A DNA stretch of 64,000 nt from an uncultured Lachnospira sp. (GCA_949002095.1 CARJMT010000007.1:70024-134023); one strand, 5' to 3'. Positions 535 through 64,000 are shown, numbered from the stretch's first letter. The notes: generated from the sequence alone by a model not told the origin. A program made the numbers and translations.

Positions 535-569
535 TGAGGCGTGGTCTGAATAGACACGCCTCATTTTGA
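535..569 (+). terminator. Rho-independent terminator (9-bp stem tgaggcgtg/cacgcctca, 11-nt loop, TTTTGA tail)
   Basis: Perfect inverted repeat 535-543/555-563 followed by a T-run. Confidence 0.7.
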
Positions 570-594
570 TTTATCCAAAAAAATATGATATAAT
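566..594 (+). promoter_or_regulatory. Sigma-70-like promoter: TTGATT (-35), 17-bp spacer, extended -10 TGATATAAT
   Basis: Hexamers at 566-571 and 589-594 with TG at 586-587; the same architecture recurs at 5827 and 7598. Confidence 0.6.
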
Positions 595-630
595 TAAATA
601 GTAAGAATATTAAAGAAAAAGAGGTATCAT

Positions 631-1140
631 ATGGCAGCACATTATGTAACTTGTGTTTATTGCGGAGAGCGGTTCAACCGTGATAAAGAGCCTACTACCC
701 AAGTGTCCGCGCGTCGATATGCTCATAAGGAATGTGCGGCAAAACATGAAGCAAATAAAAGTCAAGAGGAAAAAGATTTAGAAGCATTAGAAAAGTATAT
801 AATGCAACTTTTTGATGAAACTTATGTCAATGCCAGAGTGCGGAAGCAACTTAAAGAGTATAAAGAACAGTATCACTTTACTTATAGTGGAATCTTGAAA
901 ACTCTTATCTATTGGTATGAGATTAAGGGCAACTCAACAGAAAAGGCGAATGGCGGAATTGGTATCATTCCTTACGTTTATAATGATGCACTGAAGTATT
1001 ATTATGCTTTATATTTAGCAAAATTAGCTAATGAAAGTAAGGATATAGAAGTGTATAAGCCAAAAGAAAAGGTAATTGAGATATTGCCGCCTAAAGTGCA
1101 ACCTAAAAGAATTAGACTTTTATTTGATGACGAGGAGTAG
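631..1140 (+). CDS. Zinc-finger (CxxC...HxxC) protein, hypothetical; possible regulator or replication accessory protein
   Basis: Pattern VTCVYCGERF...AHKECAAKHE; first gene downstream of the promoter. Confidence 0.5.
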   Translation: MAAHYVTCVYCGERFNRDKEPTTQVSARRYAHKECAAKHEANKSQEEKDLEALEKYIMQLFDETYVNARVRKQLKEYKEQYHFTYSGILKTLIYWYEIKGNSTEKANGGIGIIPYVYNDALKYYYALYLAKLANESKDIEVYKPKEKVIEILPPKVQPKRIRLLFDDEE

Positions 1141-1143
1141 ATT

Positions 1144-2685
1144 ATGGGTAGTAAGTATACAGATTCTGCATCTATTGTTCAAGTAATAGGTGCCATTTAT
1201 AATAATCCTTCTTTGTTAGACGCGGAAGACAAGTATCATTTTAACGAAGAAGATTTTACTGAAGAGTTCCATCAAGTGTTATTTGGGTCTATCTATAATC
1301 TTCATGCTCTTGGCGCGGAAGAGATTACTTTAAATGCGATTGAGGATTATCTTGAGCAGAGACCTAAGAAATTAGCTATATATAAGACTAATAAAGGACA
1401 GGAATATTTGGAGAAGATTAAGCAATCTACTCAAATTGCTGCTTTTGACTATTATTACACTCGAATGAAAAAGATGACTTTGTTCAGAATGTATGAGAGT
1501 ATTGGCATGAATTTGGCTTGGTTATATGACCCAGACAATATCATGGACACAAAGAAAAAACAAGCACAAGAAGATTGGTTAGACAACACTCCTATTGAAG
1601 ATATAGCTGATTTAATAGACAGAAAAATAACTGATATTAGATTAAAATATATTGATGATTGTACTGGTGGTGCGGTAAGTGCCGGTGAAGGAGCATTAGA
1701 GCTGCTTAACCGCTTTAAAGAAACTCCAGAAATAGGATATCCACTATATGGTCCAATTTTTAACACAATCACACGTGGAGCTAGATTAAAGAAGTTTTAT
1801 CTTCGTTCTGCGGCAACTGGTGTAGGTAAGACACGTTCAATGATTGCGGATGTGTGTTCTATTGGATGCGACCAGATATATAGTTCAACTGAAGGTAAGT
1901 GGGTTGAGAATGGAAACAAGGAGCCTGTATTGTTTATCACGACAGAGCAGGAACTTGAAGAAATTCAGACTATGATGATGGCGTTTCTTTCAGATGTAAA
2001 TGAAGAACATATCATCAATGGAGAGTATTATCCTGGAGAATGGGAACGAGTAACATATGCCGCGAATCTTTTAAAGAAATGTCCAGTATATGTAGACCAG
2101 TTACCTGATTTCTCTTTAAAAGATATTGAGAATACAATTAAGCGTGAAGTTCGTGAGCATGACACTCATTATGTCTTTTTTGATTATATTCATTCAAGTA
2201 TGAAAATTTTAAGTGAGATTTCTTCTAAGTCTGGTGTAAAGGGATTAAGAGAAGATAATATCTTGTTTATGATTTCTATTAGATTGAAAGACTTATGTAA
2301 TGAGTATGGTATTTTTATTATGACAGCTACACAGTTGAATGCTGAATATAGAACTGCTGAACAGTATGACCAGAACTTATTGCGTGGAGCTAAGTCTATT
2401 GCGGATAAGATTGACGTTGGTATGATTATGCTTGAGACTTCTCAAGATGATTTAACAGCTTTAGCTGATGTTATTCAGCAGGGCGGATTTGACACTCCAG
2501 TAATTAAGATATCTGTATATAAGAATCGTAGAGGTAGATATAAGAATATCTTGTTATGGTGTAGAGCAGATAGAGGAACTTGTCGAATTGAGCCAATGTT
2601 TGTAACAAACTATCAGTTTGAGTTAATGGAAATTGAAGATTTAAAAATAAAAGTAAAGACAAAAGTTGAGAGTAGTGCATTTTAA
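1144..2685 (+). CDS. DnaB-like replicative DNA helicase
   Basis: Walker A SAATGVGKTRSM; H4-like motif TATQLN; 513 aa; lies next to the primase gene. Confidence 0.8.
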   Translation: MGSKYTDSASIVQVIGAIYNNPSLLDAEDKYHFNEEDFTEEFHQVLFGSIYNLHALGAEEITLNAIEDYLEQRPKKLAIYKTNKGQEYLEKIKQSTQIAAFDYYYTRMKKMTLFRMYESIGMNLAWLYDPDNIMDTKKKQAQEDWLDNTPIEDIADLIDRKITDIRLKYIDDCTGGAVSAGEGALELLNRFKETPEIGYPLYGPIFNTITRGARLKKFYLRSAATGVGKTRSMIADVCSIGCDQIYSSTEGKWVENGNKEPVLFITTEQELEEIQTMMMAFLSDVNEEHIINGEYYPGEWERVTYAANLLKKCPVYVDQLPDFSLKDIENTIKREVREHDTHYVFFDYIHSSMKILSEISSKSGVKGLREDNILFMISIRLKDLCNEYGIFIMTATQLNAEYRTAEQYDQNLLRGAKSIADKIDVGMIMLETSQDDLTALADVIQQGGFDTPVIKISVYKNRRGRYKNILLWCRADRGTCRIEPMFVTNYQFELMEIEDLKIKVKTKVESSAF

Positions 2686-2872
2686 GGAGTTTATTATGAA
2701 ATGTTATAGAAATGGTGGATGCGGACCTTATGAGATGTATAGTTGCAGTGAGTGTCCTTGTAGTAAAGAAGAATATCTATTGAGAAAGATTAAGAAAGAA
2801 ATAGACGAACAAGCTCAAAGGATGGCGCAAGAATGTATAGATATAATAAAGACGAACTTAAACAATCACTAA
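2666..2872 (+). CDS. Small Cys-rich hypothetical protein (68 aa)
   Basis: ORF with an RBS; overlaps neighbouring genes, so uncertain. Confidence 0.3.
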   Translation: MRVVHFKEFIMKCYRNGGCGPYEMYSCSECPCSKEEYLLRKIKKEIDEQAQRMAQECIDIIKTNLNNH

Positions 2873-3933
2873 CAATAGAACAAGTGTATGAACTAACTGC
2901 GGACTTGGGCGGAGAGCCAATGATGGAAGGTAATATATTTAAGTCAAGGACGATTTGTCACAATCCCGCAGGTCAAGGCTCATATAAACTTTACTATTAT
3001 GATAACACAAAGTTATTTAAGTGTTACACTGACTGTGGTGACTATTTTGATATTTATGAATTAGTTCGTAAGCAAAAGACAATTAGTACAGGAGAAGAAT
3101 GGTCTTTACCAAAGGCTATTGCTTTTGTTGCAGCTTATTTTGGATATTCTTCTCAGACTTTTGATTTTGGTCAAGATAAGGAGCTTCTTAAAGATTGGGA
3201 GATTCTTAGTAACTACGAACGTATCAGCAATTATGAAGAAAAGCAACAAATTGTTGAATTGAAAAAATTTGATGCAAAGATTTTGCAGTTCTTGCCACGA
3301 CCAAGAATTAGTATCTGGGAACGTGAAGGTATTAAGAAAGATATTATGATGAATCGTGGCATTGCATACGACCCTAAGAATGAGGGTATTGTTATTCCTC
3401 ATTTTGATATAGATGGAAATTTAATTGGGATTAGAGAGCGAACTCTTATTAAAGAGATGGAAAAGAACGGAAAGTATATGCCAGCAAAACTTAATAATAA
3501 AATGTATAATCATCCTTTAAGTTTTAATTTATATAACTTAAACAATAGCAAAGATGCAATAAGTATCATACAGAAGGCGATTGTTTTTGAGGGTGAGAAG
3601 TCTACATTATTATATGCAAGTTACTTCGGTGAAGAGAATGATATTAGTGTAGCTTGTTGCGGAAGTTCGCTCATATCGTATCAGGTTCAATTATTATTGT
3701 CATTAGGTGTGAAAGAAATTGTTATTGCATTCGATAAGCAGTTTAAGAAAATTGGCGATGATGAGTGGAAAAGATGGACTAAAAAATTGACAGCAATCCA
3801 CACTAAATATGGCGGATATGTGCAAATTACTTTCTTGTTCGATAAGACAGATTTATTAGGTTATAAGGACTCTCCTATAGATAGAGGACCTGAGACCTTT
3901 ATGAAACTATTTAAGGAGAGAATTATATTATGA
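2833..3933 (+). CDS. DnaG-type DNA primase (CHC2 zinc finger plus Toprim domain)
   Basis: CHNPAGQGSYKLYYYDNTKLFKCYTDCG zinc finger; FEGEKS Toprim glutamate motif. Confidence 0.7.
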   Translation: MYRYNKDELKQSLTIEQVYELTADLGGEPMMEGNIFKSRTICHNPAGQGSYKLYYYDNTKLFKCYTDCGDYFDIYELVRKQKTISTGEEWSLPKAIAFVAAYFGYSSQTFDFGQDKELLKDWEILSNYERISNYEEKQQIVELKKFDAKILQFLPRPRISIWEREGIKKDIMMNRGIAYDPKNEGIVIPHFDIDGNLIGIRERTLIKEMEKNGKYMPAKLNNKMYNHPLSFNLYNLNNSKDAISIIQKAIVFEGEKSTLLYASYFGEENDISVACCGSSLISYQVQLLLSLGVKEIVIAFDKQFKKIGDDEWKRWTKKLTAIHTKYGGYVQITFLFDKTDLLGYKDSPIDRGPETFMKLFKERIIL

Positions 3934-5753
3934 AATATCAGTTAATTAAAGATGTAAATAAAGATTATACTGCACTTGAACAGGTGCTTACAAATAGAGG
4001 ACTAAAGAGAGAAGAGATACCACACTACATAAATACAACAGATGATGATATAAATTCTTTCTTAAGTCTGGGTGAAGAGAACTTAAAAGCTGCGGCTTCC
4101 GTCCTAGTAGGAAATATACAAAGTGGAAATACAATCGGTTTGATTGTGGATAGTGACTGTGATGGTTTTACAAGTTCTGCTCTATTGATAAACTACTTAT
4201 ATGATATTTGCCCAGCTTGGGTTGAAAATCATCTTGTTTACTACATTCATGATGGTAAACAGCACGGACTAAGTGATTTTTGTGATGTTCTCTTGGAAGC
4301 TAAGTATCCATTAGTAATCGTCCCAGATGCGGGTAGTAATGACTATGAGTATCATAAGAAGTTAAAAGAAGCTGGTTGTCAAGTAATAGTATTAGACCAC
4401 CACGAAGCTGAGAGTATTTCAGAAGATGCTATTATTATAAATAATCAGTTAAGCGATTATCCAAACAAACAGTTATCTGGCGTTGGAGTAACTTGGCAAT
4501 TTTGCCGATACATTGACTCTCTATTAGGGACTTCTAATGCAGAACAGTATCTTGATTTAGTTGCTCTTGGTCTTACTGCTGATATGATGTCATTGCTTTC
4601 ATATGAAACTAAGCACTTGATAAATAAGGGATTTGAACCAGAAAATATTCACAATCCTTTCATTTATTCAATATGGCAAAAGAACCAGTATAAGTTAGGC
4701 AAACATATAACTTCATGGGGTGCCGCGTTCTATATTGCTCCTTTTGTTAATGCGATGGTGAGAAGTGGAACGCCTGGAGAGAAATTGCTTTTATTTGAAT
4801 CAATGTTGAAATTTAAAGCGTTTCAAATGATTCCTTCAAACAAGAGAGGACATAAGCTTGGAGAAGAAGAACAATTAGTTGAGCAAGCACTTCGCACTTG
4901 TACTAATGTTAAGAATAGACAAACAAGGGCGCAAGATGCAGGTATGGCTTTCCTTGAGAGTATGATACTTGAAAAGAACTTATTAGATAATAAGGTGCTA
5001 TTATTCCTTGTAAAGCCTGGTCAAGTGGACAGAAATATTGCGGGATTGGTTGCTAACAAGTTTATGGCTAAATATCAACGCCCTTGTTGTATTTTAACAA
5101 GAGTAGAAGAAAAAGATGAAGAAGCTATCGAAAGAAATAGTGGAACTTATGGTTTAATTAACTATTTACCTGAGATAAAAGTTTCATACCAAGGTTCTGC
5201 TCGCGGATGTGACAAAGTTGGAATTACAGAGTTTAAAGATATATGCGCGGCTACTGGTAAAACAATGTATGAGGTTGGTCACCAGGGAGCATTTGGTCTT
5301 GGTATTGAAGAGCATAATGTAGATGGTTTTATTTCTTCAACTAATGAAATGTTGAAAAATATGAGTGAAGAGCCTCTTTATTATGTAGATTATATATATA
5401 ATGGAAATGAGGTTAATCCACAGAACATTCTTGATATTGCGGAAATGGATTGTTACTGGGGCAAAGATGTAGACGAATCTTTGATTGCTATTAAGGATTT
5501 AAAAGTAACTAAAGACATGGTTACGTTAATGTCACCAGATAAGACTCCTACATTGAAGATTGTTCTTCCAAATAAGGTATCTATTATCAAGTTTGGTTCA
5601 AGCCAAGAAGAGTATGATAAGATTGCAACTGATGGATTCATTAAGATGGATATAATTGGTAAGTGTAATAAGAATGAGTGGAATGGATGGGTTAATGCTC
5701 AGATTATGCTTGAGGATTATGAAATCGTAGATTCCTGCAAATATTTCTTTTAA
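3930..5753 (+). CDS. DHH-family phosphoesterase, RecJ-like ssDNA exonuclease
   Basis: DSDCDG (motif I), VLDHHE (DHH motif), 607 aa. Confidence 0.6.
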   Translation: MKYQLIKDVNKDYTALEQVLTNRGLKREEIPHYINTTDDDINSFLSLGEENLKAAASVLVGNIQSGNTIGLIVDSDCDGFTSSALLINYLYDICPAWVENHLVYYIHDGKQHGLSDFCDVLLEAKYPLVIVPDAGSNDYEYHKKLKEAGCQVIVLDHHEAESISEDAIIINNQLSDYPNKQLSGVGVTWQFCRYIDSLLGTSNAEQYLDLVALGLTADMMSLLSYETKHLINKGFEPENIHNPFIYSIWQKNQYKLGKHITSWGAAFYIAPFVNAMVRSGTPGEKLLLFESMLKFKAFQMIPSNKRGHKLGEEEQLVEQALRTCTNVKNRQTRAQDAGMAFLESMILEKNLLDNKVLLFLVKPGQVDRNIAGLVANKFMAKYQRPCCILTRVEEKDEEAIERNSGTYGLINYLPEIKVSYQGSARGCDKVGITEFKDICAATGKTMYEVGHQGAFGLGIEEHNVDGFISSTNEMLKNMSEEPLYYVDYIYNGNEVNPQNILDIAEMDCYWGKDVDESLIAIKDLKVTKDMVTLMSPDKTPTLKIVLPNKVSIIKFGSSQEEYDKIATDGFIKMDIIGKCNKNEWNGWVNAQIMLEDYEIVDSCKYFF

Positions 5754-5756
5754 CTG

Positions 5757-5786
5757 CTCGGGCGGAAGACGCCCGAGTTTTAATTT
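5757..5786 (+). terminator. Rho-independent terminator (ctcgggcg-gaaga-cgcccgag plus TTTTAATTT)
   Basis: 8-bp GC-rich perfect stem followed by a T-run, directly after the stop codon at 5753. Confidence 0.75.
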
Positions 5787-5826
5787 CAAAAATGGGTTTG
5801 GAATTTTTTGCTCCAAAATTACTATA

Positions 5827-5855
5827 TTGATTTTTGCATAAAAATATGATATAAT
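5827..5855 (+). promoter_or_regulatory. Promoter: TTGATT, 17-bp spacer, TGATATAAT (second copy)
   Basis: Same architecture and sequence as 566-594; precedes the RBS and ATG at 5877. Confidence 0.6.
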
Positions 5856-5876
5856 ATAATAAAAGAAGGTGAAGAT

Positions 5877-6101
5877 ATGGCTTTTAATCCTGGGATACCA
5901 GAGGACGTAGGTATTTTAGACCTATTAAATGTATTTAGCTTATGGGCGCAGATAGACAATATGAATATGGATAAGCAACAGACTGAATATATTCGTAAAG
6001 TCATAAGAGCCATAGCTGATGAAATAGATAAGTTACACAAAGAGAATGATATAATAATAAAACAAAATGAGGAAATATTAGATTTATTAAGGAGAAGATG
6101 A
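5877..6101 (+). CDS. Hypothetical small protein (74 aa)
   Basis: ORF with RBS aagaaggtg, directly downstream of the promoter. Confidence 0.45.
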   Translation: MAFNPGIPEDVGILDLLNVFSLWAQIDNMNMDKQQTEYIRKVIRAIADEIDKLHKENDIIIKQNEEILDLLRRR

Positions 6102-6415
6102 TGTTTAGAGGAAAAGAAAATATGATAACCGCAGAACATCTGAAGAATGGTGAGGAATGTATAGTTGTAGGATATGGACAGTCAATGACTCCTATCTTGA
6201 AGTCAGGGCAGGCAGTCCGCGTAAGTCCTATAACCGAAGAGACGACTTTAAGTAAAAATGATATAGTTTTTGTTAAGGTTGCTGGACATATCTATCTTCA
6301 TAAGATTTCTGCTATAAAGAATGGAACTACCTATCAAATATCAAACAATCATGGTCATATAAATGGTTGGGTAGGAAAATCTCAAATTTATGGAAAGGTT
6401 GTTGAAATATTATGA
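6098..6415 (+). CDS. S24 (LexA/UmuD-like) serine peptidase domain protein
   Basis: GQSMTP (Ser nucleophile) and a downstream Lys (VFVKVAGH); 105 aa with no DNA-binding domain. Confidence 0.45.
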   Translation: MMFRGKENMITAEHLKNGEECIVVGYGQSMTPILKSGQAVRVSPITEETTLSKNDIVFVKVAGHIYLHKISAIKNGTTYQISNNHGHINGWVGKSQIYGKVVEIL

Positions 6416-7587
6416 TACTGAATGCGAAACAAGAGCAAGGGTTAAAGATTGCAGTAGAGAGATATAAGAATCATGAGAAGTTTACAGTAATTGCAGGATA
6501 CGCGGGAGCTGGTAAGTCTACCCTTGTTCGTTTTATTATAGAGGCTTTGAATGTGCCTGAAGAGGAGGTTTGTTATGCTACCTTTACTGGCAAAGCCGCA
6601 CAGGTATTATTGAAAAAGGGAAATAAGAATGTAAGTACATTACATAAGTTATTATATAAAAGTTTCCCTAAGCCAGATGGTTCGTTTGTGCGGATTCCAG
6701 TGGAAGAAGTGCCATATGATATTGTAATTGTAGACGAGGTATCTATGGCTCCTAAGACTATTATGGAATTGCTGTTCCAGTATGACGTGCATATTATCTG
6801 CCTTGGTGACCCATTCCAGTTGCCGCCTGTAGATAAGAATGAAGATAATCATTTGCTTGACAATCCTCATATCTTCCTTGACGAGATAATGCGGCAAGCG
6901 CAAGAATCTGAGATTATTAGATTGACTATGGATATTAGGGCTGGCAAACCTTTACATCCTATGCAGGGCAATGAAGTAATTATAGTTCCTCAGCAAGACT
7001 TAAATACAGGTATGCTTCAATGGGCAGACCAAGTTATATGTGGAACTAATGCCACAAGAATTGGTATCAACAATCAAATGAGAGAACTGTCTGGAAAGAG
7101 CGGCGGTCCGCAAGATGGTGATAAGGTTATTTGTTTGTTTAATGAGTGGGATATTATTGGAAGTAACGATGACCCACTTATCAATGGAACTATCGGGGCA
7201 ATAAATAATACTTTCTCTACATTCTATCAACTTCCAAGATACGTTGGTGGACAGCAGTTGTCTGTATTGGTAGCAGATTTTAACACTGATAATGATGCTA
7301 CGTTCCAAGGTCTTGAGATGGATAAGTTAATGTTCTCTACTGGAGAGTACACTTTAGATTGGAAGACTAGCTATAAGTTAATGAAGAATCCAAAGACTAG
7401 ACATTTGCTTCCATTAAAATTTACTTATGGATATGCGATTACTTGTCATAAGAGTCAAGGTAGTGAGTGGGATAAAGTTCTTGTTATAGAAGAAAAGTTC
7501 CCATTTGATAAAGATGAACATGCCCGCTGGCTTTATACAGCAGCAACTCGTGCAGCCGAGAAGTTAGTAATCAGAATGAAACCATAA
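6412..7587 (+). CDS. SF1 DNA helicase, RecD/Dda-like
   Basis: GYAGAGKST Walker A; IVIVDEVSM Walker B; GDPFQLPPV motif III; TCHKSQGSEWDKV motif V. Confidence 0.85.
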   Translation: MILNAKQEQGLKIAVERYKNHEKFTVIAGYAGAGKSTLVRFIIEALNVPEEEVCYATFTGKAAQVLLKKGNKNVSTLHKLLYKSFPKPDGSFVRIPVEEVPYDIVIVDEVSMAPKTIMELLFQYDVHIICLGDPFQLPPVDKNEDNHLLDNPHIFLDEIMRQAQESEIIRLTMDIRAGKPLHPMQGNEVIIVPQQDLNTGMLQWADQVICGTNATRIGINNQMRELSGKSGGPQDGDKVICLFNEWDIIGSNDDPLINGTIGAINNTFSTFYQLPRYVGGQQLSVLVADFNTDNDATFQGLEMDKLMFSTGEYTLDWKTSYKLMKNPKTRHLLPLKFTYGYAITCHKSQGSEWDKVLVIEEKFPFDKDEHARWLYTAATRAAEKLVIRMKP

Positions 7588-7597
7588 GAGAATTAAG

Positions 7598-7626
7598 TTG
7601 ATTTTATCTGTGAAATATGATATAAT
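7598..7626 (+). promoter_or_regulatory. Promoter: TTGATT, 17-bp spacer, TGATATAAT (third copy)
   Basis: Identical architecture to the other two copies; precedes the polymerase gene. Confidence 0.6.
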
Positions 7627-7658
7627 TATTATATAAAAGATAATAAAGGAAAAGATAA

Positions 7659-10600
7659 ATGAAAAGATTTGAAGTTCATAGTCATACTCATTACAGTAAT
7701 CTTCGTCTGCTCGATTGTATAAATCGTCCGAAAGATTTGATTAATAGAGCGATAGAATTAGGTTTAAGTGGTATCGCCATCACTGACCACGAAGCATTAT
7801 GTGGTCATATGGAGATTAACCAATATGCAAAGACTTTAAAAGAGGAACATCCAGATTTTAAAGTTGCATTAGGAAATGAAATTTATTTGTGTCCAAATAG
7901 AGAAAATGGTCAGAAGTACTACCATTTTATTTTGATTGCAAAGAATAAAGTAGGACATAGAGTATTGAGAGAGTTATCTTCAAGAGCGTGGATGAACTCA
8001 TGGTACGACAGAGGTATGGAAAGAGTTGTAACTACGTATGAAGATTTAAAAGAGATTGTAGGCAAACATCCTGGTTCAGTAATAGCAACAACGGCTTGTC
8101 TGGGCGGAGAGCTTAGCACACAAACTCTTAACATGATAAATTGTGAAGCTGTGCATGATTATGCAGGTAAAGAGATGGCTCACAATGATATAGTGAACTT
8201 TATGTTATTTTGTAAGTCACTATTTGGAGAAGACTTCTATATTGAATGCGCTCCAGCCGAAAGTAAAGACCAAATTGCAGTTAATAAAAGATTGGTGTCT
8301 ATTGCGGAATGTTTTAATGTGCAAATGATAATTGGTACTGATGCTCATTATTTGAAGAAGGAAGATAGGTTCATTCATGAATCTTACTTGAACTCTAAAG
8401 GTGGGGAGCGTGAGGTAGCAAGTTTCTATGAGTACGCTTACTTGCAAAGTGAGAATGAAGTAAGAGAAAATTTAGCGGCAAGTATACCTGATATGTACGA
8501 GAAAATGATGGTGACTTCCGCAGAAATATATGATAAAATAGAGGAATATAGTCTTGAACATAAGCAGACAATTCCTACTGTTGACGTGGAATATTATCCT
8601 AAAGATGACTCTTTAAAAGAGTACCCAACTCTTCATAAGTTACTTTTGAGTGATGATGAGCAAGATAGATATTGGGTAAATAGTTGTCTAAGAGGTTTAA
8701 GAGATAAAGATTTATGGAACGAAACTTATTTAAGTAGATTGGAAGAAGAGGCTGACATTAAGTCAACTATCAGTGAGAAGTTGGAAACTAATATGTTTAG
8801 CTATCCTAACACACTACAGCACTACATCAATATGTTCTGGGATTGCGGAAGTATTGTTGGTGCGGGAAGAGGCTCCAGTTGTAGTGGATTGAACCATTAT
8901 TTGTTAGGGATAACTCAGCTTGACCCAATCGAATGGGAGCTTCCTTTCTGGAGATACTTAAATAAGGAACGTGTTGAGTTAGGTGATATTGACCTTGACT
9001 TATGTCCATCTAAGCGTCCTTTGATTATTAGAAAGATAAAAGAAGAGCGTGGACAGAAGTTTAGAAAGGATATAGATGACCTATCAAGAAAGAATCTTGG
9101 ATGTACATTGATTGCGACTTTTGGTACAGAGGGAACTCGTTCTACAATCTTGACCGCTTGTCGTGGATATAGAAGTGAAGGGTATCCAGACGGTATTGAT
9201 GTTGATACCGCTCAGTATATGTCATCTTTGATTCCATCAGAAAGAGGATTCTTGTGGCCGCTATCTGATGTTGTGAATGGAAATGCAGATAAAGATAGAC
9301 GTCCTATTAAGGCGTTTATAAATGAAGTAGCACAGTATCCTGGTTTATTGGATATTATGACCGCTATTGAGGGACTTATAAATAAGAGAAGTAGCCACGC
9401 ATCTGGAGTTATTTTGTTTGATGAAGACCCTTATGAGTTTGGATGCTTTATGAGAACTCCAAAAGGCGAAGTTATCACTCAGTATGATTTACATATGTGT
9501 GAAGCCGCAGGAATGACGAAGTATGACTTCTTGGTAACAGAAGTTCAAGATAAGTTAGCGGAGACTATTAGACTACTTCAAGAGTACAATGAAATTGATA
9601 AGAACTTAACTTTAAGAGAAGTTTATAATAAATACTTCCATCCATCTATTTTGCCAATTAAGGATGAAAATATTTGGAAGGCACTTCAAGAGAACAGTGT
9701 ATTGAATATCTTCCAGTTTGACTCTGAGGTGGGCGGACAGGCGGCAAAGAAGATTAAGCCAACGAATATTTTAGAGATGGCAGACGCAAATGGTCTAATG
9801 AGATTGATGACCGCAGAAAAAGGACAGGAAGCGCCAATGGAAAAGTATGTTCGCTTTAAGAATAATATTGACCTTTGGTATAAAGAGATGGATAGAGCTG
9901 GCTTAACTAAAGATGAACAGAAAACTTTAGAGCCTTACTTCTTATCTTCTCATGGAGTTCCGCCTAGCCAAGAGCAGTTAATGAAGATGCTTATGGATGA
10001 AGATATATGTGGGTTCACGTTAAAAGATGCGAATGCCGCGCGTAAGATTGTTGGTAAGAAACAAATGTCTAAAATTCCTGAATTGAAAGAACAGGTTCTT
10101 ACAAAAGCAAAAAGTCAGAACTTGGGACAGTATGTTTGGGATTGCGGAATTGGTCCTCAGATGGGTTACTCATTCTCAATCATTCATGCTCTTGCGTACT
10201 CATTCATAGGTTTCCAGACTATGTTTGTTGCGACTAGATGGAATCCAATTTATTGGAATACAGCTTGTTTGATTGTAAATAGTGGTTCGTTGGAAGAAGA
10301 GGACGAATATGAAATTGAAGAGGACGAGAATGGTGAAAGATTAGTTAAGAAAGAAAAGTCAACTGATTATGCAAAGGTAGCTAAGGCTCTTGGAGATATC
10401 ATATCTAAAGGTATTAAAATATCTTTAATTGACATCAACCGTTCAAATTATAGCTTTGAGCCAGATATAGAAAATAATCAAATCTTATTTGGTATGAAAG
10501 CGTTGAATGGTGTGGGAGCGCCAGTTATTGATGCAATCATTCAGAATAGACCTTTCAGCAGTTTCACTGATTTTATGAATAGATGCCCGTTAAATAAGAC

Positions 10601-11594
10601 AGCAATGTTCTCTCTAATTAAAGCAGGAAGCTTTGATTTATTAGAGAAAGACTGGGCGGAAGAACTTGGAGTAGAACCAAGACTGCTGATTATGGTTTAT
10701 TATATATTAAAGGTTTGTGACGCAAAGAAGAGATTGACACTTCAGAACTTTAATGGATTGATTCAAAGAGATTTGATACCTGCGTCTCTTGAGTTTCAGA
10801 AGAGAGTGTTCACTTTTAATAAGTATTTAAAAGCTGAAAAGAAAGTGGGCAAGTATTATATCTTTGATGATGTTTGTGAAAGGTTCTACTCTCAGTTCTT
10901 TGATATGGAGAAGTTGAGTGTAATAAATGGTATCACTTGTATTCTTCAGACAGACTGGGATAAGATGTACCAAAAAGAGATGGATGCCGCGAGAGATTGG
11001 TTGAAAGAGAACCAAGAAGAAGTGTTGAAAGAGTTTAACTATATATTGTTTAAGGAATGTTGGGATAAGTATGCAGTTGGTACAATCTCAGCGTGGGAAA
11101 TGGAAAGTCTATGTTTCTACTATCACGACCATGAGTTGATTGATGTAGATGTAGATAAGTACGGTATCTCTAACTTCTTCAATATGCCAGAGACTCCTAT
11201 TGTAGATTACTTCTTCAAGCGGAATGGCAAGGAGATTCCAATTTATAAGACTTATAAGATAATTGGAACTGTCATAAGTAAGAATGATACTCGTTCATCA
11301 GTAACAATATTGACAACTAATGGTGTCGTAAATGTGAAGTTCACAAAAGAATATTTTGCTATGTTCAATCGGCAAATATCTGAAGTTCAGGAAGATGGAA
11401 CTAAGAAAGTGAAAGAAAAAGGTTGGTTCTCAAGAGGAAGTAAGATTATGGTAACTGGCTTCCGCAGAGAAGACACTTTTGTTGCTAAGTCTTATAAGCA
11501 CACATCTACACATCAGTTATATAAGATAACAAATGTGGAAAACGGAGAAATGCAGTTAGAGCATGAACGTTATGGTCAAGGAGGAGCCGAATGA
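7659..11594 (+). CDS. DNA polymerase III alpha-type (DnaE-like) replicative polymerase with an N-terminal PHP domain
   Basis: HSHTHYS...ITDHEAL PHP motifs; 1311 aa. Confidence 0.8.
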   Translation: MKRFEVHSHTHYSNLRLLDCINRPKDLINRAIELGLSGIAITDHEALCGHMEINQYAKTLKEEHPDFKVALGNEIYLCPNRENGQKYYHFILIAKNKVGHRVLRELSSRAWMNSWYDRGMERVVTTYEDLKEIVGKHPGSVIATTACLGGELSTQTLNMINCEAVHDYAGKEMAHNDIVNFMLFCKSLFGEDFYIECAPAESKDQIAVNKRLVSIAECFNVQMIIGTDAHYLKKEDRFIHESYLNSKGGEREVASFYEYAYLQSENEVRENLAASIPDMYEKMMVTSAEIYDKIEEYSLEHKQTIPTVDVEYYPKDDSLKEYPTLHKLLLSDDEQDRYWVNSCLRGLRDKDLWNETYLSRLEEEADIKSTISEKLETNMFSYPNTLQHYINMFWDCGSIVGAGRGSSCSGLNHYLLGITQLDPIEWELPFWRYLNKERVELGDIDLDLCPSKRPLIIRKIKEERGQKFRKDIDDLSRKNLGCTLIATFGTEGTRSTILTACRGYRSEGYPDGIDVDTAQYMSSLIPSERGFLWPLSDVVNGNADKDRRPIKAFINEVAQYPGLLDIMTAIEGLINKRSSHASGVILFDEDPYEFGCFMRTPKGEVITQYDLHMCEAAGMTKYDFLVTEVQDKLAETIRLLQEYNEIDKNLTLREVYNKYFHPSILPIKDENIWKALQENSVLNIFQFDSEVGGQAAKKIKPTNILEMADANGLMRLMTAEKGQEAPMEKYVRFKNNIDLWYKEMDRAGLTKDEQKTLEPYFLSSHGVPPSQEQLMKMLMDEDICGFTLKDANAARKIVGKKQMSKIPELKEQVLTKAKSQNLGQYVWDCGIGPQMGYSFSIIHALAYSFIGFQTMFVATRWNPIYWNTACLIVNSGSLEEEDEYEIEEDENGERLVKKEKSTDYAKVAKALGDIISKGIKISLIDINRSNYSFEPDIENNQILFGMKALNGVGAPVIDAIIQNRPFSSFTDFMNRCPLNKTAMFSLIKAGSFDLLEKDWAEELGVEPRLLIMVYYILKVCDAKKRLTLQNFNGLIQRDLIPASLEFQKRVFTFNKYLKAEKKVGKYYIFDDVCERFYSQFFDMEKLSVINGITCILQTDWDKMYQKEMDAARDWLKENQEEVLKEFNYILFKECWDKYAVGTISAWEMESLCFYYHDHELIDVDVDKYGISNFFNMPETPIVDYFFKRNGKEIPIYKTYKIIGTVISKNDTRSSVTILTTNGVVNVKFTKEYFAMFNRQISEVQEDGTKKVKEKGWFSRGSKIMVTGFRREDTFVAKSYKHTSTHQLYKITNVENGEMQLEHERYGQGGAE

Positions 11595-12127
11595 TAGTAA
11601 TAAATTTGTTTGGTGTGCCTGGCGCTGGTAAATCTACTGGCGCCGCATACATTTTCTCTCAACTTAAAATGCATGGAGTAAATGCGGAATTGATTACTGA
11701 ATTTGCTAAAGATAAAGTATGGGAAGAGAACCATGAAGTCTTTAAGAACCAAGCATATGTGTTTGGTAAGCAAAGTTTTAAAATGAGTAGATGTAAAGAT
11801 AAAGTAGATGTTATTGTCACTGACTCTCCTTTGCTCTTATCTGCTTTTTATAATAACGATGAAACTCTTGGAGAAGATTTCAATAAGGTTGTAAATAATG
11901 TGTTTAAATCTTATGATAATAGAAACTTCTTATTATTGAGAACTAAACCATATAACCCTATTGGAAGACACCAAACTGAAGAAGAATCTGATGCTTTAGC
12001 TGAACCAATGCGGAACTTATTGGTTAAGTATGATGTAAGAGCAGAAATGATTGCAGGTGAAACTGACGGATATAAGAAAATTGTAAGTAAGATATTGAAG
12101 GAGTTAGGAATTGATGAAGAACAGTAA
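11591..12127 (+). CDS. P-loop NTPase, putative (d)NMP kinase or AAA-like ATPase
   Basis: GVPGAGKST Walker A; 178 aa; sits in the nucleotide-metabolism cluster. Confidence 0.5.
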   Translation: MIVINLFGVPGAGKSTGAAYIFSQLKMHGVNAELITEFAKDKVWEENHEVFKNQAYVFGKQSFKMSRCKDKVDVIVTDSPLLLSAFYNNDETLGEDFNKVVNNVFKSYDNRNFLLLRTKPYNPIGRHQTEEESDALAEPMRNLLVKYDVRAEMIAGETDGYKKIVSKILKELGIDEEQ

Positions 12128-12677
12128 ATATAAAGTTCTCGCCCTATTCGGAAAGAGTGGAGCGGGAAAAGATACTATTCAAAAATGGCTAACTACAAAC
12201 TATGATATGAATGGAATTATTTCTTGTACCACCCGCCCAATGCGAGACTATGAGAAAGATGGAGTAGATTATCATTTCTTATCAAATGAAACTTTTGCTC
12301 AGAAGGTTCTTGATTTATCGATGCTTGAAGCGACTTGCTTTAATGATTGGTTTTATGGTACCCCGCTTGAATCTTTAGATAAAGACAGAGTTAATGTTGG
12401 AGTATTTAATATTCAAGGAATTGAATGCTTACTTCAAGACTCAAGACTTGATATAGTTCCAGTCTATATTTATAGCCATGATAAAGTAAGATTATTAAGG
12501 AACTTAGAACGTGAGAAGAATCCTAACTGTCAAGAGATTTGCAGAAGATTTTTAACTGATGAACAAGATTTCTCTAACATAGATTTTGATTATGTTCTTT
12601 TTGATAATAGCGACAATCGAATACGCGGTTTTTATGGTTTCACAAATCTGCCCGAAGTACGAGATTTAATTGGGTAA
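12111..12677 (+). CDS. Guanylate kinase-like nucleoside monophosphate kinase
   Basis: GKSGAGKDT plus the gmk signature SCTTRPMRDYEKDGVDYHF. Confidence 0.7.
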   Translation: MMKNSKYKVLALFGKSGAGKDTIQKWLTTNYDMNGIISCTTRPMRDYEKDGVDYHFLSNETFAQKVLDLSMLEATCFNDWFYGTPLESLDKDRVNVGVFNIQGIECLLQDSRLDIVPVYIYSHDKVRLLRNLEREKNPNCQEICRRFLTDEQDFSNIDFDYVLFDNSDNRIRGFYGFTNLPEVRDLIG

Positions 12678-12695
12678 GAATCTTTAATTATTTCT

Positions 12696-12740
12696 TGACA
12701 AAAGTCATATAATAAGAAACCTTAAAATACTTATATAATT
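12696..12740 (+). promoter_or_regulatory. Candidate promoter region (TTGACA at 12696 and TATAAT at 12735 are too far apart to pair; assignment ambiguous)
   Basis: Hexamers present upstream of the nrdD RBS aggagg. Confidence 0.3.
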
Positions 12741-12754
12741 AGGAGGATAATTAA

Positions 12755-14926
12755 ATGGTTCAGATTAAGAAACGCGATGGTCGCATAGTAAATTTTGACC
12801 AGAATAAAATTATTGATGCAATCTTTTCCGCCTTTAGAGAGATAGATGGAGAGCTGTCAGATTACGCTTATATTAAGGCTGGAAATATCGCGGACTATAT
12901 TCAAGACGTAGCTGACAAATGGAATCAAGAGGACAAATACCTTACTGTTGAAGATATTCAAGACTTAGTTGAAAAAGGTTTAATGTCTACTAAACGTAAG
13001 GATGTTGCTAGAGCTTACATTACTTATAGAAATAAAAGAACTGAAGCTAGAGGCAATATTACTGACCAGACAATAGATGAACTATTAACTGGTAATAATG
13101 AATATTGGAGTAAAGAAAACTCTAATAAGAATCCAATGATTGTCACTACTCAAAGAGATTATATTGCTGGTATTACCAGTACTGACCTAACAAGAAGAAA
13201 ATTATTACCAAAAGATATAGTTGAAGCACACGACGCGGGAATTATCCATTTCCATGATGCAGACTACTTTGCACAAAATGCTTTAACTAACTGTGAATTA
13301 TTAAATCTTGATGATATGCTTCAAAATGGCACTGTCATCAATGGCGTAAAAATCGACAAGCCGCACAGAGTAATTACAGCCTCAACAATAGGAACTCAAA
13401 TTATCTTAGCAGTAACATCCTCTACATATGGCGGATGTACCGTATCTTTAGCACATCTTGCTCCTTTTGTTAGAGATAGCTATAAAATATATTTGAACAA
13501 ATATTTAGATTGGGGTATGTCTTATAAAAAGGCTGTGTTATACGCTAAATATGATACAAGAAAAGAAATTGCTGATGCCGTTCAAACTTTTAATTATCAA
13601 GTTAATAGTATGACAAATACCAACGGTCAAGCACCTTTCCTTTCAGTTTGTATGTACTTAGGAGAAACAGATAAATATAAAGAAGAGCTTGCTATGCTTA
13701 TTGAAGAGTTTTTAAAACAAAGATTATTAGGTTTTAAAAATAAACAAGGAGTATATGTAACACCTGCATTTCCTAAGTTATTATATGTACTTGAAGAAGA
13801 TAACATTCATGAAGATAGTAAATATTATTATTTGACTGAATTAGCTGCTCAATGTACCGCAAAGAGAATGGTTCCAGACTATATCTCTGAGAAAGTAATG
13901 AAGCAGTTAAAAATAGATGCGAACGGAAATGGACAATGTTATCCATGTATGGGTTGTCGCTCATTCTTATTGCCATATGTAGATGAAAATGGGAGACCTA
14001 AATATTATGGTAGAATGAATATGGGAGTGGTGACGATAAATCTTGCGGATATTGCCTTATCATCTGAAGGAAACTTTGATAAGTTTTGGGACATATTTGA
14101 AGAACGTACTGAATTATGTCATAAAGCTTTAAGAATCCGCTATGAAAGAATTGCTGGAATTACATCTGATGCAGCACCTATTTTATGGCAAGATGGAGGA
14201 TTAGCTAGATTACAACCTGGAGAGTCTATCAAGAAGTTATTGCATAATGATTATGCCACTATTTCTCTTGGCTATGCCGCATTATATGAATGTGTTAAAT
14301 ATATGACTGGAGAAAGTCATACTCAAGAGAATGGTAAAAAGTTTGGATTAGAAGTTATGCAGAAGCTTAATGATAAATGTAAACAATGGAGAATGGAAGA
14401 AAACATTGGTTACAGCTTATATGGGACGCCTCTTGAGTCAACCACATATAAGTTTGCAAAAGGACTTCAGAAACGCTTTGGCATTATTGAAGAAATCACA
14501 GACCATGATTATGTAACTAATTCTTATCATATCAATGTAAGAGAAGACATTGACGCTTTTACTAAGCTAAAATTAGAAAGTGAGTTTCAAGCATTAAGTC
14601 CAGGTGGAGCAATTAGTTATGTAGAAGTTCCTAATATGCAGAATAATATTCCTGCTGTTTTAGAGTTAATTAAGTATATGTACGAAAATATTATGTATGC
14701 GGAAATTAACACTAAAAGTGATTATTGCCAAATATGCGGTTTTGATGGAGAAATCCAAATTAAAGAAAGTGAAGATGAGAAGCTCTATTGGGAATGTCCT
14801 AACTGCGGAAATCACGATGAAAAGAAAATGTCAGTAGTAAGACGTACTTGTGGATATTTAGGCTCTCAATTTTGGAATCAGGGCAGAACTGAAGAGATTA
14901 GAGATAGAGTATTACACGTGGAGTAA
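12755..14926 (+). CDS. nrdD: Anaerobic ribonucleoside-triphosphate reductase
   Basis: N-terminal ATP-cone (VQIKKRDGRIVNFD); C-terminal Zn ribbon CQICG...CPNCG; glycyl-radical motif RTCGYLG. Confidence 0.9.
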   Translation: MVQIKKRDGRIVNFDQNKIIDAIFSAFREIDGELSDYAYIKAGNIADYIQDVADKWNQEDKYLTVEDIQDLVEKGLMSTKRKDVARAYITYRNKRTEARGNITDQTIDELLTGNNEYWSKENSNKNPMIVTTQRDYIAGITSTDLTRRKLLPKDIVEAHDAGIIHFHDADYFAQNALTNCELLNLDDMLQNGTVINGVKIDKPHRVITASTIGTQIILAVTSSTYGGCTVSLAHLAPFVRDSYKIYLNKYLDWGMSYKKAVLYAKYDTRKEIADAVQTFNYQVNSMTNTNGQAPFLSVCMYLGETDKYKEELAMLIEEFLKQRLLGFKNKQGVYVTPAFPKLLYVLEEDNIHEDSKYYYLTELAAQCTAKRMVPDYISEKVMKQLKIDANGNGQCYPCMGCRSFLLPYVDENGRPKYYGRMNMGVVTINLADIALSSEGNFDKFWDIFEERTELCHKALRIRYERIAGITSDAAPILWQDGGLARLQPGESIKKLLHNDYATISLGYAALYECVKYMTGESHTQENGKKFGLEVMQKLNDKCKQWRMEENIGYSLYGTPLESTTYKFAKGLQKRFGIIEEITDHDYVTNSYHINVREDIDAFTKLKLESEFQALSPGGAISYVEVPNMQNNIPAVLELIKYMYENIMYAEINTKSDYCQICGFDGEIQIKESEDEKLYWECPNCGNHDEKKMSVVRRTCGYLGSQFWNQGRTEEIRDRVLHVE

Positions 14927-14930
14927 GGAT

Positions 14931-15437
14931 ATGAGATATGCAGGAATAAAAGAAAATGATACAACTAACGGAGAGGGAGTTTGCCTCTCCGTATTCACTC
15001 AAGGTTGTCCACATAGATGTAAAGGATGCTTTAATTCTGAAACATGGGATTTTGATGGTGGAATTGAAGTTGAAGATATGGATAAGTTTATTAAAGATAT
15101 AGTGTTGAAGTTAAGAGCAAATGGGGTACAACGAAATCTTAGTATCTTAGGTGGAGAGCCTCTTTGTGATGCTAATCAACATTTTGTATCTTTATTAGTC
15201 GGAGTTGCTAGAGAAGCTTATCCAGATATAAAAATATATTTATGGACTGGATATTACCTTGAAGATGTTCCTAAGAATGTTTATACTGATTTTATCCTTG
15301 AGAACGTAGATGTTATTATTGATGGTCCATTTATCGAGGAAGAACGTGATATCACATTGAAATTGAGGGGTAGTAAAAATCAAAGAATTTTGACAAAAGA
15401 AAAAATATGTGATATAATAAATCATAAAGGAGAATGA
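14931..15437 (+). CDS. nrdG: Anaerobic RNR activating enzyme (radical SAM)
   Basis: CPHRCKGC radical-SAM cluster motif; lies directly downstream of nrdD. Confidence 0.85.
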   Translation: MRYAGIKENDTTNGEGVCLSVFTQGCPHRCKGCFNSETWDFDGGIEVEDMDKFIKDIVLKLRANGVQRNLSILGGEPLCDANQHFVSLLVGVAREAYPDIKIYLWTGYYLEDVPKNVYTDFILENVDVIIDGPFIEEERDITLKLRGSKNQRILTKEKICDIINHKGE

Positions 15438-16793: not shown

Positions 16794-17059
16794 TGACTTG
16801 GAAAGAATGCCTTAAATGGCAAGCTGAAGAGAAAGCTTTTCTTGATAGCGTAGATATTAAAGGTCTAATTAAAGAATTAGATACTGATGATATTTATGAT
16901 ATTATGGATGAAATAGAGGATAGATACAGAAAGCAATACTCAGAAGAGTTTGTTTTTAATTGTATGGATGCTTCAGAGTTTGGCGATTATTTAAGAGAAC
17001 GCTACCCAGAAGCAAACATATATGAACACACAGAAACTACTTACCATGTTATATTTTAA
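16793..17059 (+). CDS. Hypothetical acidic protein
   Basis: ORF whose start codon overlaps the dut stop codon. Confidence 0.4.
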   Translation: MTWKECLKWQAEEKAFLDSVDIKGLIKELDTDDIYDIMDEIEDRYRKQYSEEFVFNCMDASEFGDYLRERYPEANIYEHTETTYHVIF

Positions 17060-17097
17060 TGATGTCACTTTGTGGCATCATTTTTTTTATGCAAAAA

Positions 17098-17126
17098 TTG
17101 ACAAACCGAAAATTTTGTGTTATAAT
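17098..17126 (+). promoter_or_regulatory. Perfect sigma-70 consensus promoter: TTGACA, 17-bp spacer, TATAAT
   Basis: TTGACA 17098-17103; TATAAT 17121-17126; followed by RBS aaaggagg and the ATG at 17155. Confidence 0.75.
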
Positions 17127-39302: not shown

Positions 39303-39331
39303 ATTCTAACATAATATTATTTTTTTGTCAA
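39303..39331 (-). promoter_or_regulatory. Promoter on the - strand: TTGACA, 17-bp spacer, TAGAAT
   Basis: Reverse complement of tgtcaa at 39326-39331 and of attcta at 39303-39308; lies upstream of the 1737-aa gene. Confidence 0.55.
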
Positions 39332-48890: not shown

Positions 48891-48909
48891 AAATTTTCTT
48901 TTGTCAAGA

Positions 48910-59939: not shown

Positions 59940-59968
59940 ATTATACCAAAAATTTAGAACTTTGTCAA
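59940..59968 (-). promoter_or_regulatory. Perfect consensus promoter on the - strand: TTGACA, 17-bp spacer, TATAAT
   Basis: Reverse complement of 59963-59968 gives TTGACA; reverse complement of 59940-59945 gives TATAAT. Confidence 0.65.
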
Positions 59969-63928: not shown

Positions 63929-64000
63929 TAAGTAATATGAATCACTTCCAAATTTACCCCATGCATCTTCTTTTAACTTAGAATAATTACATAGTAGTGC

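Follow-up and report, generated by a model that had tools for sequence, protein, structure and literature searches.

Three near-identical promoters in the replication module of an SPbeta-like phage resemble host-type sigma-A extended -10 promoters

Three near-identical promoters, P1, P2 and P3, stand at the heads of three replication gene units in a large, uncultivated SPbeta-like phage of the gut type. We consider them, at a probability of about 0.84, to be strong housekeeping sigma-A/sigma-70 extended -10 promoters that a low-GC, anaerobic Firmicute host would transcribe with its unmodified RNA polymerase, their near-identity being the product of convergence. The argument is built on what can be observed directly, namely the motifs and their positions, the terminators, the conservation at orthologous junctions and the lack of any extra shared sequence. 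The window, as we call it here, is the whole stretch of 64,000 nt from an uncultured Lachnospira sp.

Results

Three exact copies of one promoter motif

A search of the window for TTGATT-N14-TGATATAAT returned exactly three exact matches, all on the + strand, at 566-594 (P1), 5827-5855 (P2) and 7598-7626 (P3). The expected number of matches was 0, and none was found in 100 dinucleotide-preserving shuffles, which confirms an earlier observation that three promoters share TTGATT, a 17-bp spacer and an extended -10 element. The three sites also have in common a T after the -35 element (TTGATTT) and AAATA before the TG, giving AAATATGATATAAT, and this string is present at all three sites as the sequence-only reading had written it. 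The search string proposed at that time, TTGATTN17TGATATAAT, gave 0 matches; N14 is the correct gap because the 17 bp are counted from hexamer to hexamer and already contain the TGA.

Each promoter combines the -35 hexamer TTGATT (4/6 relative to TTGACA) and an exact 17-bp spacer with a 6/6 TATAAT, located at 589-594, 5850-5855 and 7621-7626, respectively. The arrangement TATG-A-TATAAT corresponds to the Gram-positive TRTG '-16' element. Each site matches the sigma-A consensus at 10/12 hexamer positions plus the TG, and so does not form a consensus distinct from the housekeeping one. At P2 a second TATAAT (5855-5860) overlaps the first.

All three promoters are intergenic (gaps 529-630, 5754-5876 and 7588-7658) and co-oriented with the downstream gene, and downstream of each a Shine-Dalgarno sequence precedes the ATG by 4-8 nt; P3 starts 10 nt past the helicase stop codon. 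From the end of the -10 element, the distances for P1, P2 and P3 are 25, 10 and 19 nt to the Shine-Dalgarno sequence and 36, 21 and 32 nt to the ATG, and from the start of the -35 element to the Shine-Dalgarno sequence they are 54, 39 and 48 nt. The previous description of the promoters as lying 30-40 nt upstream of a ribosome-binding site was therefore imprecise. Transcription is predicted to start at about A600/G601 from P1, A5861-5863 from P2 and A7633 from P3, with leaders of about 30, 15 and 26 nt, respectively.

Transcription units of the replication module

P1 would drive unit 1 (631-5753), which encodes a YorH-like Zn-ribbon protein (631-1140), a DnaB helicase (1144-2685), a small Cys-rich ORF (2696-2872), a primase (2833-3933) and a RecJ-like exonuclease (3930-5753). 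The Zn-ribbon protein carries a C-x2-C...H-x2-C motif, matches Pfam PF26927 and is 32% identical to SPbeta YorH (E = 3e-17). Unit 2 (5877-7587), the putative target of P2, consists of orf74 (5877-6101), an S24 peptidase-only protein (6098-6415) and a Dda/RecD-like SF1 helicase (6412-7587). Unit 3 (7659-15437), assigned to P3, begins with a DnaE-type Pol III alpha (7659-11594) and continues with nucleotide-metabolism genes, encoding an AAA_28 kinase-like protein (11591-12127), a guanylate kinase (12111-12677), the anaerobic ribonucleotide reductase NrdD (12755-14926) and NrdG (14931-15437). All of these genes lie on the + strand. The gene identities given previously (Zn-finger, helicase and primase; small ORF, S24 and RecD-like; polymerase) were right, and the RecJ-like exonuclease that follows the primase in unit 1 was absent from that list. 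A tRNA scan of the window found none.

Indirect hints of the host come from the anaerobic NrdDG genes and from one relative, 61% identical, that was binned in an Acutalibacteraceae MAG. GenBank phages gave no match to 12 kb of the sequence by megablast, and in the closest cultured relatives the polymerase is only about 39% identical.

Terminators

The upstream sak4 unit ends in an intrinsic terminator hairpin on the + strand (537-565; dG -19 kcal/mol, z = -5.3, 0/200 shuffles equally stable) with the tail TTTGATTTAT, and its U-tract (TTTTGATTTAT) overlaps the -35 element of P1. The same layout was seen at the sak4/yorH junction in 15/15 distinct relatives, where the hairpin end falls between -1 and +9 relative to the first position of the -35 element and the stem sequences are unrelated. 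Unit 1 has its own intrinsic terminator on the + strand (5756-5788), a GC-rich hairpin at 5756-5778 (9 pairs, 7 of them GC; dG of the region -27.9 kcal/mol, z = -3.9) followed by TTTTAATTT.

Overlap of terminator and promoter is confined to P1. The terminator before P2 is separate, about 50 nt upstream, and P3 lacks one: a stable hairpin was sought in 7560-7615 and none was found. Since unit 2 is not followed by a terminator, read-through into unit 3 is expected.

Conservation in related phages

We compared the three junctions with those of 26 related SPbeta-like phage contigs or loci (about 117-176 kb), in which the flanking proteins are 40-95% identical. A TTGAnn-17-TGnTATAAT promoter was present at all three junctions in nearly all 26 loci. 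We take P1-P3 to be functional because the same junctions nearly always carry a strong promoter in these relatives. The ortholog of P1 at the sak4/yorH junction was found in 18/19 loci. At the P2 junction, where nearly all loci have a promoter, the -10 element and the TTGA are invariant and the TG is kept in 11/14 loci while the rest of the spacer varies, which is the pattern that sigma-A contacts would be expected to leave. Orthologs of P3 before polA have TTGACT, TTGATT, TTGACA or TTGAAT as the -35 element; when the orthologous junctions are taken together, TTTACT joins these four among the -35 elements, and the TG is followed by either A or T.

In the family matrix of 68 unique sites, T19 was found in 58/68 and R20 in 49/68 (the TRTG element), and the extra information resides in T19/R20, an AT-only spacer and an A/T-rich segment after the -10 element. 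P-values derived from such family counts are inflated because the counts contain orthologous, non-independent sites.

A block of about 80 nt in the RecJ-P2 intergenic region, upstream of P2, is also conserved. RNAalifold predicted no consensus pairs in this block, and an Rfam search of it gave chance-level matches only (E > 0.5).

Common descent and a shared operator as improbable explanations

Spacer identity among the three sites is 11, 7 and 8 of 14 positions, which is within the family background, and the flanks agree at 6-7/20 positions upstream and 6/15 downstream, at or below the family median. Outside the polymerase-contact positions, P1-P3 are thus no more alike than random or unrelated promoter pairs of the family. 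This result bears on two other explanations. If the three copies were a duplicated or mobile promoter cassette, they would be alike by common descent, and the P1-P2 spacers (11/14 identical) do rank among the most similar 7% of pairs in the family; however, the other two spacer pairs sit at the family median and no homology is seen in the flanks. Moreover, distant relatives carry a separate ortholog of each promoter at the matching junction, and each promoter therefore predates the divergence of this genome. We rejected the cassette on the grounds of the flanks and of these separate orthologs, and regard it as the least probable of all the readings.

Only slightly more credible, and still highly improbable, is a phage repressor operator of the SPBRE/MrpR type, in which the repressor would bind the ATATGATAT palindrome and keep the replication genes silent in the lysogen. 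SPbeta provides a precedent in the MrpR element at yorE, which heads the homologous replication module, and ATAT-G-ATAT does form a 9-bp palindrome overlapping the -10 element. Yet the three sites share no element of about 15 bp beyond the -35 and -10 elements, and the palindrome is broken (TGATAT to TGTTAT) with the promoter retained in close relatives, at P2 in L001 and L002 and at P1 in L003. The same sequence also occurs in many unrelated phages, and a non-systematic look among the window proteins scanned turned up no integrase or repressor. A shared operator or dyad was rejected because flanks and spacers are no more similar than background and orthologs do not keep the palindrome intact.

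Two promoter flavours and the question of a temporal class

About 27 promoters of this general type are present in 83 kb of the phage, 6 of them with TTGATT, and a fourth exact copy of the motif, outside the window, heads an operon of small genes oriented divergently from the structural module. Within the family there are two flavours, TTGAyT with a T-rich spacer and TTGACA with an A-rich spacer; TTGATT/TTGACT sites have 4.3-4.7 T in the first 7 nt of the spacer and TTGACA sites 1.4. Two TTGACA promoters of the window, both on the + strand with a 17-bp spacer, served for comparison. One (15390-15418, with TGATATAAT) lies before the genes from orf131 through dUTPase, and its L003 and L025 orthologs retain TTGACAaaag; the other (17098-17126, with TGTTATAAT) lies before a RuvC-like resolvase gene and is preceded by a terminator at 17058-17082.

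The sequence-only reading had taken P1-P3 for a distinct phage temporal-class family, most likely early or middle. In its fuller form, the TTGAyT promoters with T-rich spacers would be a separately regulated middle or delayed-early class, told from the TTGACA promoters with A-rich spacers by a phage factor that reads either the end of the -35 hexamer (its last two positions) or the part of the spacer next to it. The existence of two flavours speaks for such a class, as do the TTGATT flavour of all three core replisome unit heads, the retention of TTGATT at the P2 junction in most relatives, and the presumed early small-gene cluster, which mostly has TTGACA with upstream A-tracts. We nevertheless consider it unlikely. 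The orthologous P1 and P3 sites switch among TTGATT, TTGACT and TTGACA. In the DNA-metabolism module itself, TTGACA promoters are interleaved with TTGATT ones, standing before yorF/sak4, orf131-dUTPase and ruvC, and the presumed late structural operons have TTGACA promoters too. Conversely, one TTGATT promoter (L034 8688) is found at the head of a small-gene operon and another (L034 1206) within the cluster presumed to be early. At least 120 unrelated low-GC viral contigs contain the exact motif, and the spacer bias is the same there. A Pfam or PHROGs scan of 35 window proteins brought up no candidate for a phage sigma factor, activator or RNA polymerase, a tblastn with YonO was negative over 83 kb of phage, and the giant proteins contain no RNA polymerase domain, the 2931-aa protein being a tape measure. 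What survives of the earlier claim is that the promoters head three replication-module units, being intergenic, followed by a ribosome-binding site, associated with terminators and kept in relatives; the distinct temporal class is not supported.

Sites of the family with an abutting hairpin tend to have a T-rich proximal spacer (4.5 T of 7, versus 2.5 at the others). An abutting hairpin was found at 14/31 TTGATT sites (Fisher p of about 0.05, on non-independent data). As a full explanation of the TTGATT flavour, terminator overlap was rejected: it is only partial, and the difference between the flavours is not fully accounted for because the overlap covers no more than these 14/31 sites. It is conceivable, though again unlikely, that the TTGAyT/T-run flavour is a functional device rather than drift, either a 'stop-and-restart' module in which the same T-rich DNA is U-tract, -35 element and spacer, or a signature for a phage factor that times the replication genes. 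The conserved block upstream of P2 might then contribute to this control. If the stop-and-restart idea were true, each replication sub-operon would be insulated from upstream transcription and separately controllable.

Discussion

We favor the reading of P1-P3 as host-type sigma-A promoters, in which promoter activity, use of the host sigma-A, start sites and operon boundaries are all inferred from sequence. Sigma region 4 would read the TTGATT of the -35 element, region 3 the TG within the TATG -16 element, and region 2 the perfect TATAAT at optimal 17-bp spacing. Initiation would follow about 7 nt past the -10 element, on A or G, and yield short leaders of 15-30 nt. P1 would restart transcription directly after the terminator of the sak4 unit, its TTGATTT run having a second role as the U-tract of that terminator, and would drive yorH-dnaB-primase-recJ to the terminator at 5756-5788. 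P2 would drive orf74-S24-Dda, and P3 may serve inside the module to boost polA and the genes of nucleotide metabolism, which would also be fed by read-through from P2. The near-identity of the three sites probably reflects convergence on a family-wide optimum (TTGAyT, a T-rich and then A-rich spacer, TRTGnTATAAT), and not descent from one copy, an operator that all three share or a phage factor dedicated to them. The gene content makes early or middle timing plausible, but timing cannot be read from the sequence.

The analysis yields a transcription map of the replication module in an abundant uncultivated SPbeta-like phage (about 142-149 kb) of anaerobic Firmicutes. This phage lineage appears to rely on many host-type consensus promoters, the structural genes included. 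The promoters follow an everyday form and point to no new regulatory principle, and they call for caution, since near-identical promoters in one AT-rich phage genome can reflect mere convergence on the host consensus.

The extended -10 or '-16 region' TRTGnTATAAT was reportedly described by Voskuil and Chambliss in 1998 for sigma-A promoters of Bacillus subtilis and its phages. P1-P3 resemble such Gram-positive promoters in the TATAAT, the TATG, the 17-bp spacer, the TTGA and the AT-rich spacer and start region. They differ from the consensus in a -35 element that ends in TT instead of CA and in the T-run that follows it, and nothing essential is affected; in -35 elements of the sigma-70 type, conservation is lowest at these last two positions.

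Repeated promoters that head functional modules in a large phage recall the middle and late classes of SPO1, the MotA-dependent middle class of T4 and the YonO late class of SPbeta. All of these classes need a phage factor or polymerase, and in those of SPO1 and T4 the -35 element or both elements are clearly off the host consensus. P1-P3, unlike these classes, have the host consensus in both elements (the YonO promoter sequence lay outside this comparison), and, contrary to what a temporal class would predict, the TTGATT...TGATATAAT signature is not conserved at their orthologous sites.

The closest parallel in gene order is the SPbeta replication module, which is homologous and syntenic (YorF, Sak4/YorG, YorH, DnaB/YorI, primase/YorJ, RecJ/YorK and Pol/YorL) and likewise has a hairpin between sak4 and yorH. 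At the two SPbeta junctions that were read there is no room for an internal promoter: the ribosome-binding site follows directly after the yorG-yorH hairpin, and yorK and yorL are 12 nt apart. The operator of MrpR in SPbeta is a repeated 15-bp element (SPBRE) present at ten promoter regions, that of yorE among them (PMC10516654). SPbeta thus has a repressor operator in the upstream yorE promoter region, whereas the phage family studied here is without an SPBRE-like shared element and splits the module with three strong promoters and an extra Dda-helicase unit. The lack of promoter room at these SPbeta junctions, where the phage studied here has three promoter-headed units, is compatible with one operon under repressor control in SPbeta without proving it.

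Promoter conservation and transcription units

We searched the window for TTGATT-N14-TGATATAAT and found three exact copies, all on the + strand, at 566-594 (P1), 5827-5855 (P2) and 7598-7626 (P3); 100 dinucleotide-preserving shuffles contained none. Site reading and the pattern search thus bore out the near-identical trio with a 17-bp spacer described in the sequence-only reading. The search string proposed there, which carried an N17 run, matched nothing because the 17 bp are counted from hexamer to hexamer and the TGA already lies inside them. P1, P2 and P3 also have in common a T directly 3' of the -35 and AAATA 5' of the TG. From the end of the -10, the Shine-Dalgarno sequence lies 25, 10 and 19 nt downstream at P1, P2 and P3, respectively, and the ATG 36, 21 and 32 nt downstream, so that the spacing to the ribosome-binding site is more variable than the 30-40 nt initially claimed. 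By standard promoter geometry, the host sigma-A holoenzyme would read all three promoters, with start sites expected at ~600/601 for P1, 5861-5863 for P2 and ~7633 for P3.

We then compared 25 IMG/VR loci and one locus from a metagenome-assembled genome (MAG), all with the same gene order and with Dda identities of 43-88%. At each of the three junctions, a high-scoring TTGAnn-17-TGnTATAAT promoter was present in nearly all of the 26 loci, a few tens of nucleotides 5' of the first gene of each unit. When the P2 junction was aligned across 14 loci (Dda proteins 49-88% identical), the -10 and the TTGA of the -35 proved invariant, the TG was kept in 11 of 14 and the remaining spacer was variable, a pattern of constraint that, judged from the alignment, is the one expected of sigma-A contacts. 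A strong hairpin terminator at 537-565 (dG -19 kcal/mol, z = -5.3) closes the sak4 unit and a GC-rich hairpin terminator at 5756-5778 closes the P1-headed unit; no terminator was found between the Dda gene and P3. Given the junction conservation and the bracketing terminators, we regard P1-P3 as heading three transcription units (yorH-like gene to RecJ, orf74 to Dda, and Pol III alpha with the nucleotide genes), with read-through from the second into the third, and we put the probability that they are functional sigma-A-type promoters at about 0.85. The proposal of three promoters heading three replication sub-operons is supported by their conservation across relatives.

In the same 14-locus alignment, the ~80 nt from the RecJ stop to the P2 -35 (5754-5826) are conserved at the DNA level, with a mean column identity of 73%, and contain a GC-containing block GCTCGGnGCGC...TCG and AAAAATGcGTTTGGAaTTTTTT. 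Since the hairpins of different lineages are in different registers, RNAalifold gave no consensus RNA structure for the ~80 nt; no Rfam match was found. This conserved stretch could be a protein-binding site.

Overlap of terminators and promoters

In all 15 of the distinct genomes compared, a stable hairpin (dG from -7 to -22 kcal/mol) lies at the sak4/yorH junction. The stems are unrelated in sequence, yet each 3' arm stops between -1 and +9 relative to the first base of the -35, and the T-run that follows is the -35 plus the proximal spacer. On this evidence TTGATTT at P1 is, by its layout, dual-use DNA, both a -35 element and a predicted terminator U-tract. With a threshold of dG -10 kcal/mol or lower, 12 of 20 genomes had a hairpin abutting the promoter at P2, and 5 of 19 had one at P3. 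Among 87 unique promoters, which are not phylogenetically independent sites, an abutting hairpin was associated with a T-rich proximal spacer (4.5 vs 2.5 T of 7, p ~2e-5) and weakly with TTGATT (p ~0.05). The TTGAyT/T-run flavour is explained only in part by dual use (14 of 31 TTGATT sites).

Source of the likeness and the question of a temporal class

What P1-P3 have in common are polymerase-contact positions, namely the -35, TRTG (TATG) plus one base, and a perfect -10. In a position matrix built from 68 unique promoters of this phage and its SPbeta-like relatives (the family), information beyond the fixed hexamers peaks at T19 and R20 (the TRTG '-16' element); G and C are excluded from the spacer, which is T-rich by the -35 and A-rich by the TG, and an A/T-rich segment lies 3' of the -10. 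Pairs among P1-P3 match at 11 (top 7% of family pairs), 7 and 8 of the 14 spacer positions (family median ~7), at 6-7 of the 20 nt upstream of the -35 (about the family median) and at 6 of the 15 nt downstream of the -10 (at or below it). Set against all family pairs, the flanks hold no operator, no duplicated cassette and no hidden repeat. Close relatives do not keep the ATAT-G-ATAT palindrome but have TGTTATAAT at their orthologous P1 and P2 sites, and the P2 ortholog of one related locus (L001) has a 16-bp spacer. P1-P3 add new members to a kind of promoter that is very well known.

The sequence-only reading had taken TTGATT...TGATATAAT to define a phage temporal-class family. This was not supported, since the -35 switches at orthologous sites (TTGATT, TTGACT, TTGACA, TTTACT, TTGAAT), the flavours are interleaved and the motif is generic. 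In the DNA-metabolism module of this phage, TTGATT with TGTTATAAT drives the DUF7123 gene and with TGATATAAT forms P1-P3, while TTGACA drives yorF/sak4 and orf131 through dUTPase with TGATATAAT, and ruvC with TGTTATAAT. A census over ~83 kb of the phage counted ~27 such promoters, of which 6 have TTGATT. A fourth exact copy (TTGATTtatttaaaaataaaTGATATAAT), at position 8688 of L034 (the same phage past window position 64000), heads a small-gene operon diverging from the structural genes, and a further TTGATT site lies inside an early-looking 8.7-kb stretch of L034 that is dense with promoters (12 in all). Scanning IMG/VR returned at least 120 exact matches on contigs of every size. The contigs listed have a median GC content of 35%, several of them with 3-6 copies, and their matches likewise have TRTG and a T-then-A spacer. 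Neither a phage RNA polymerase nor a sigma factor turned up among the 35 window proteins scanned against Pfam or PHROGs, and tblastn with SPbeta YonO against ~83 kb of the ~142-149 kb genome gave no match. A 2931-aa protein considered as a phage RNA polymerase was rejected, as it is the tape measure. Early or middle timing of the replication genes is plausible by analogy with other large phages, but the sequence itself offers no support for it, and we consider it unlikely that the TTGATT flavour is the sign of a class or device under its own regulation.

Promoters outside the replication module

The structural module carries two perfect TTGACA-17-TGnTATAAT promoters, at 59940-59968 (-) and 48879-48907 (-), and a TTGACA-17-TGTTAGAAT promoter at 39303-39331 (-). 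The operons they precede are those of the portal/terminase region, of the stretch upstream of the tape-measure gene and of a 1737-aa protein, and their presence is a further argument against a temporal class defined by TTGATT. Positions 1-8700 of L034, probably an early region, hold ~20 small genes whose transcription leads away from the structural genes; 12 strong extended -10 promoters lie in these 8.7 kb, and many of them have A-tracts upstream. Unusually GC-rich sequence, which may encode small RNAs, follows two antisense TTGACA promoters there (1266+ and 3072+).

A complete diversity-generating retroelement (DGR) lies at 20898-24084 (-). Its reverse transcriptase (Pfam RVT_1) is encoded at 20898-22169 (-) and its template repeat lies at 22377-22501 (-), while the variable repeat, at 23286-23410 (-), is located at the 3' end of the DUF6273 gene that spans 23272-24084. 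The two repeats differ at 17 positions, every one of them a template adenine. A perfect TTGACA-17-TGATATAAT at 24628-24656 (-), within the ORF 24105-24980 and just upstream of the target gene, may serve the cassette as an internal promoter.

The phage, its host and its relation to SPbeta

The phage genome to which the window belongs, of ~142-149 kb, recurs across many metagenome assemblies; the ENA contigs ERR3199540_169 (141,814 bp) and ERR3199526_141 (148,947 bp) are identical to the window over 17.5 kb and 11 kb, respectively. No close DNA-level relative was found among GenBank phages. The gene order is SPbeta-like (YorF, Sak4/YorG, YorH, DnaB, primase, RecJ, orf74, S24 peptidase, Dda-like helicase, Pol III alpha), and the gene read earlier as a Zn-finger gene is a YorH homolog (C-x2-C...H-x2-C, 32% identity, E = 3e-17). 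Downstream of the DnaE-type Pol III alpha, which is ~39% identical to SPbeta YorL and likewise to polymerases of ~140 kb Enterococcus siphophages, come nucleotide kinases and NrdD/NrdG, an anaerobic ribonucleotide reductase. An anaerobic Firmicute host is suggested by NrdDG and by one relative, 61% identical, that was binned in an Acutalibacteraceae MAG.

A small Cys-rich ORF (MKCYRNGGCGPYEMYSCSECPC...) at 2696-2872 (+), annotated as a gene of 58 aa in the identical ENA contig, occupies the apparent dnaB-primase gap and runs into the start of the primase gene. L001 and L002 also have this gap; L003 lacks it. The Dda-helicase operon includes a 105-aa UmuD-like S24 peptidase domain without a DNA-binding domain (6098-6415, +), found among the 26 related loci only in L001 and L002. 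In five relatives (L007, L008, L011, L020, L023) the polymerase match starts only at residue ~430-620, 1.6-4 kb past the helicase gene, which suggests that polA is split or interrupted by inteins, introns or homing endonucleases, as is annotated for polA of the Enterococcus phages EF1 and EF5.

SPbeta keeps the yorG-yorH hairpin as in this phage, but its RBS directly follows the hairpin, and its yorK-yorL gap, which lacks the orf74/S24 peptidase/Dda-like helicase group, is 12 nt, so there is no promoter space at these two junctions. At the head of the SPbeta module, the promoter region of yorE is one of the SPBRE sites to which the repressor MrpR binds (PMC10516654). The MrpR-bound head and the two junctions without room for a promoter are consistent with the SPbeta module being run as one unit. 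The SPbeta late genes form a single YonO-dependent operon (PMC5467207). Unlike SPbeta, this phage family has three internal host-type promoters in its replication module and consensus host-type promoters in its structural module.
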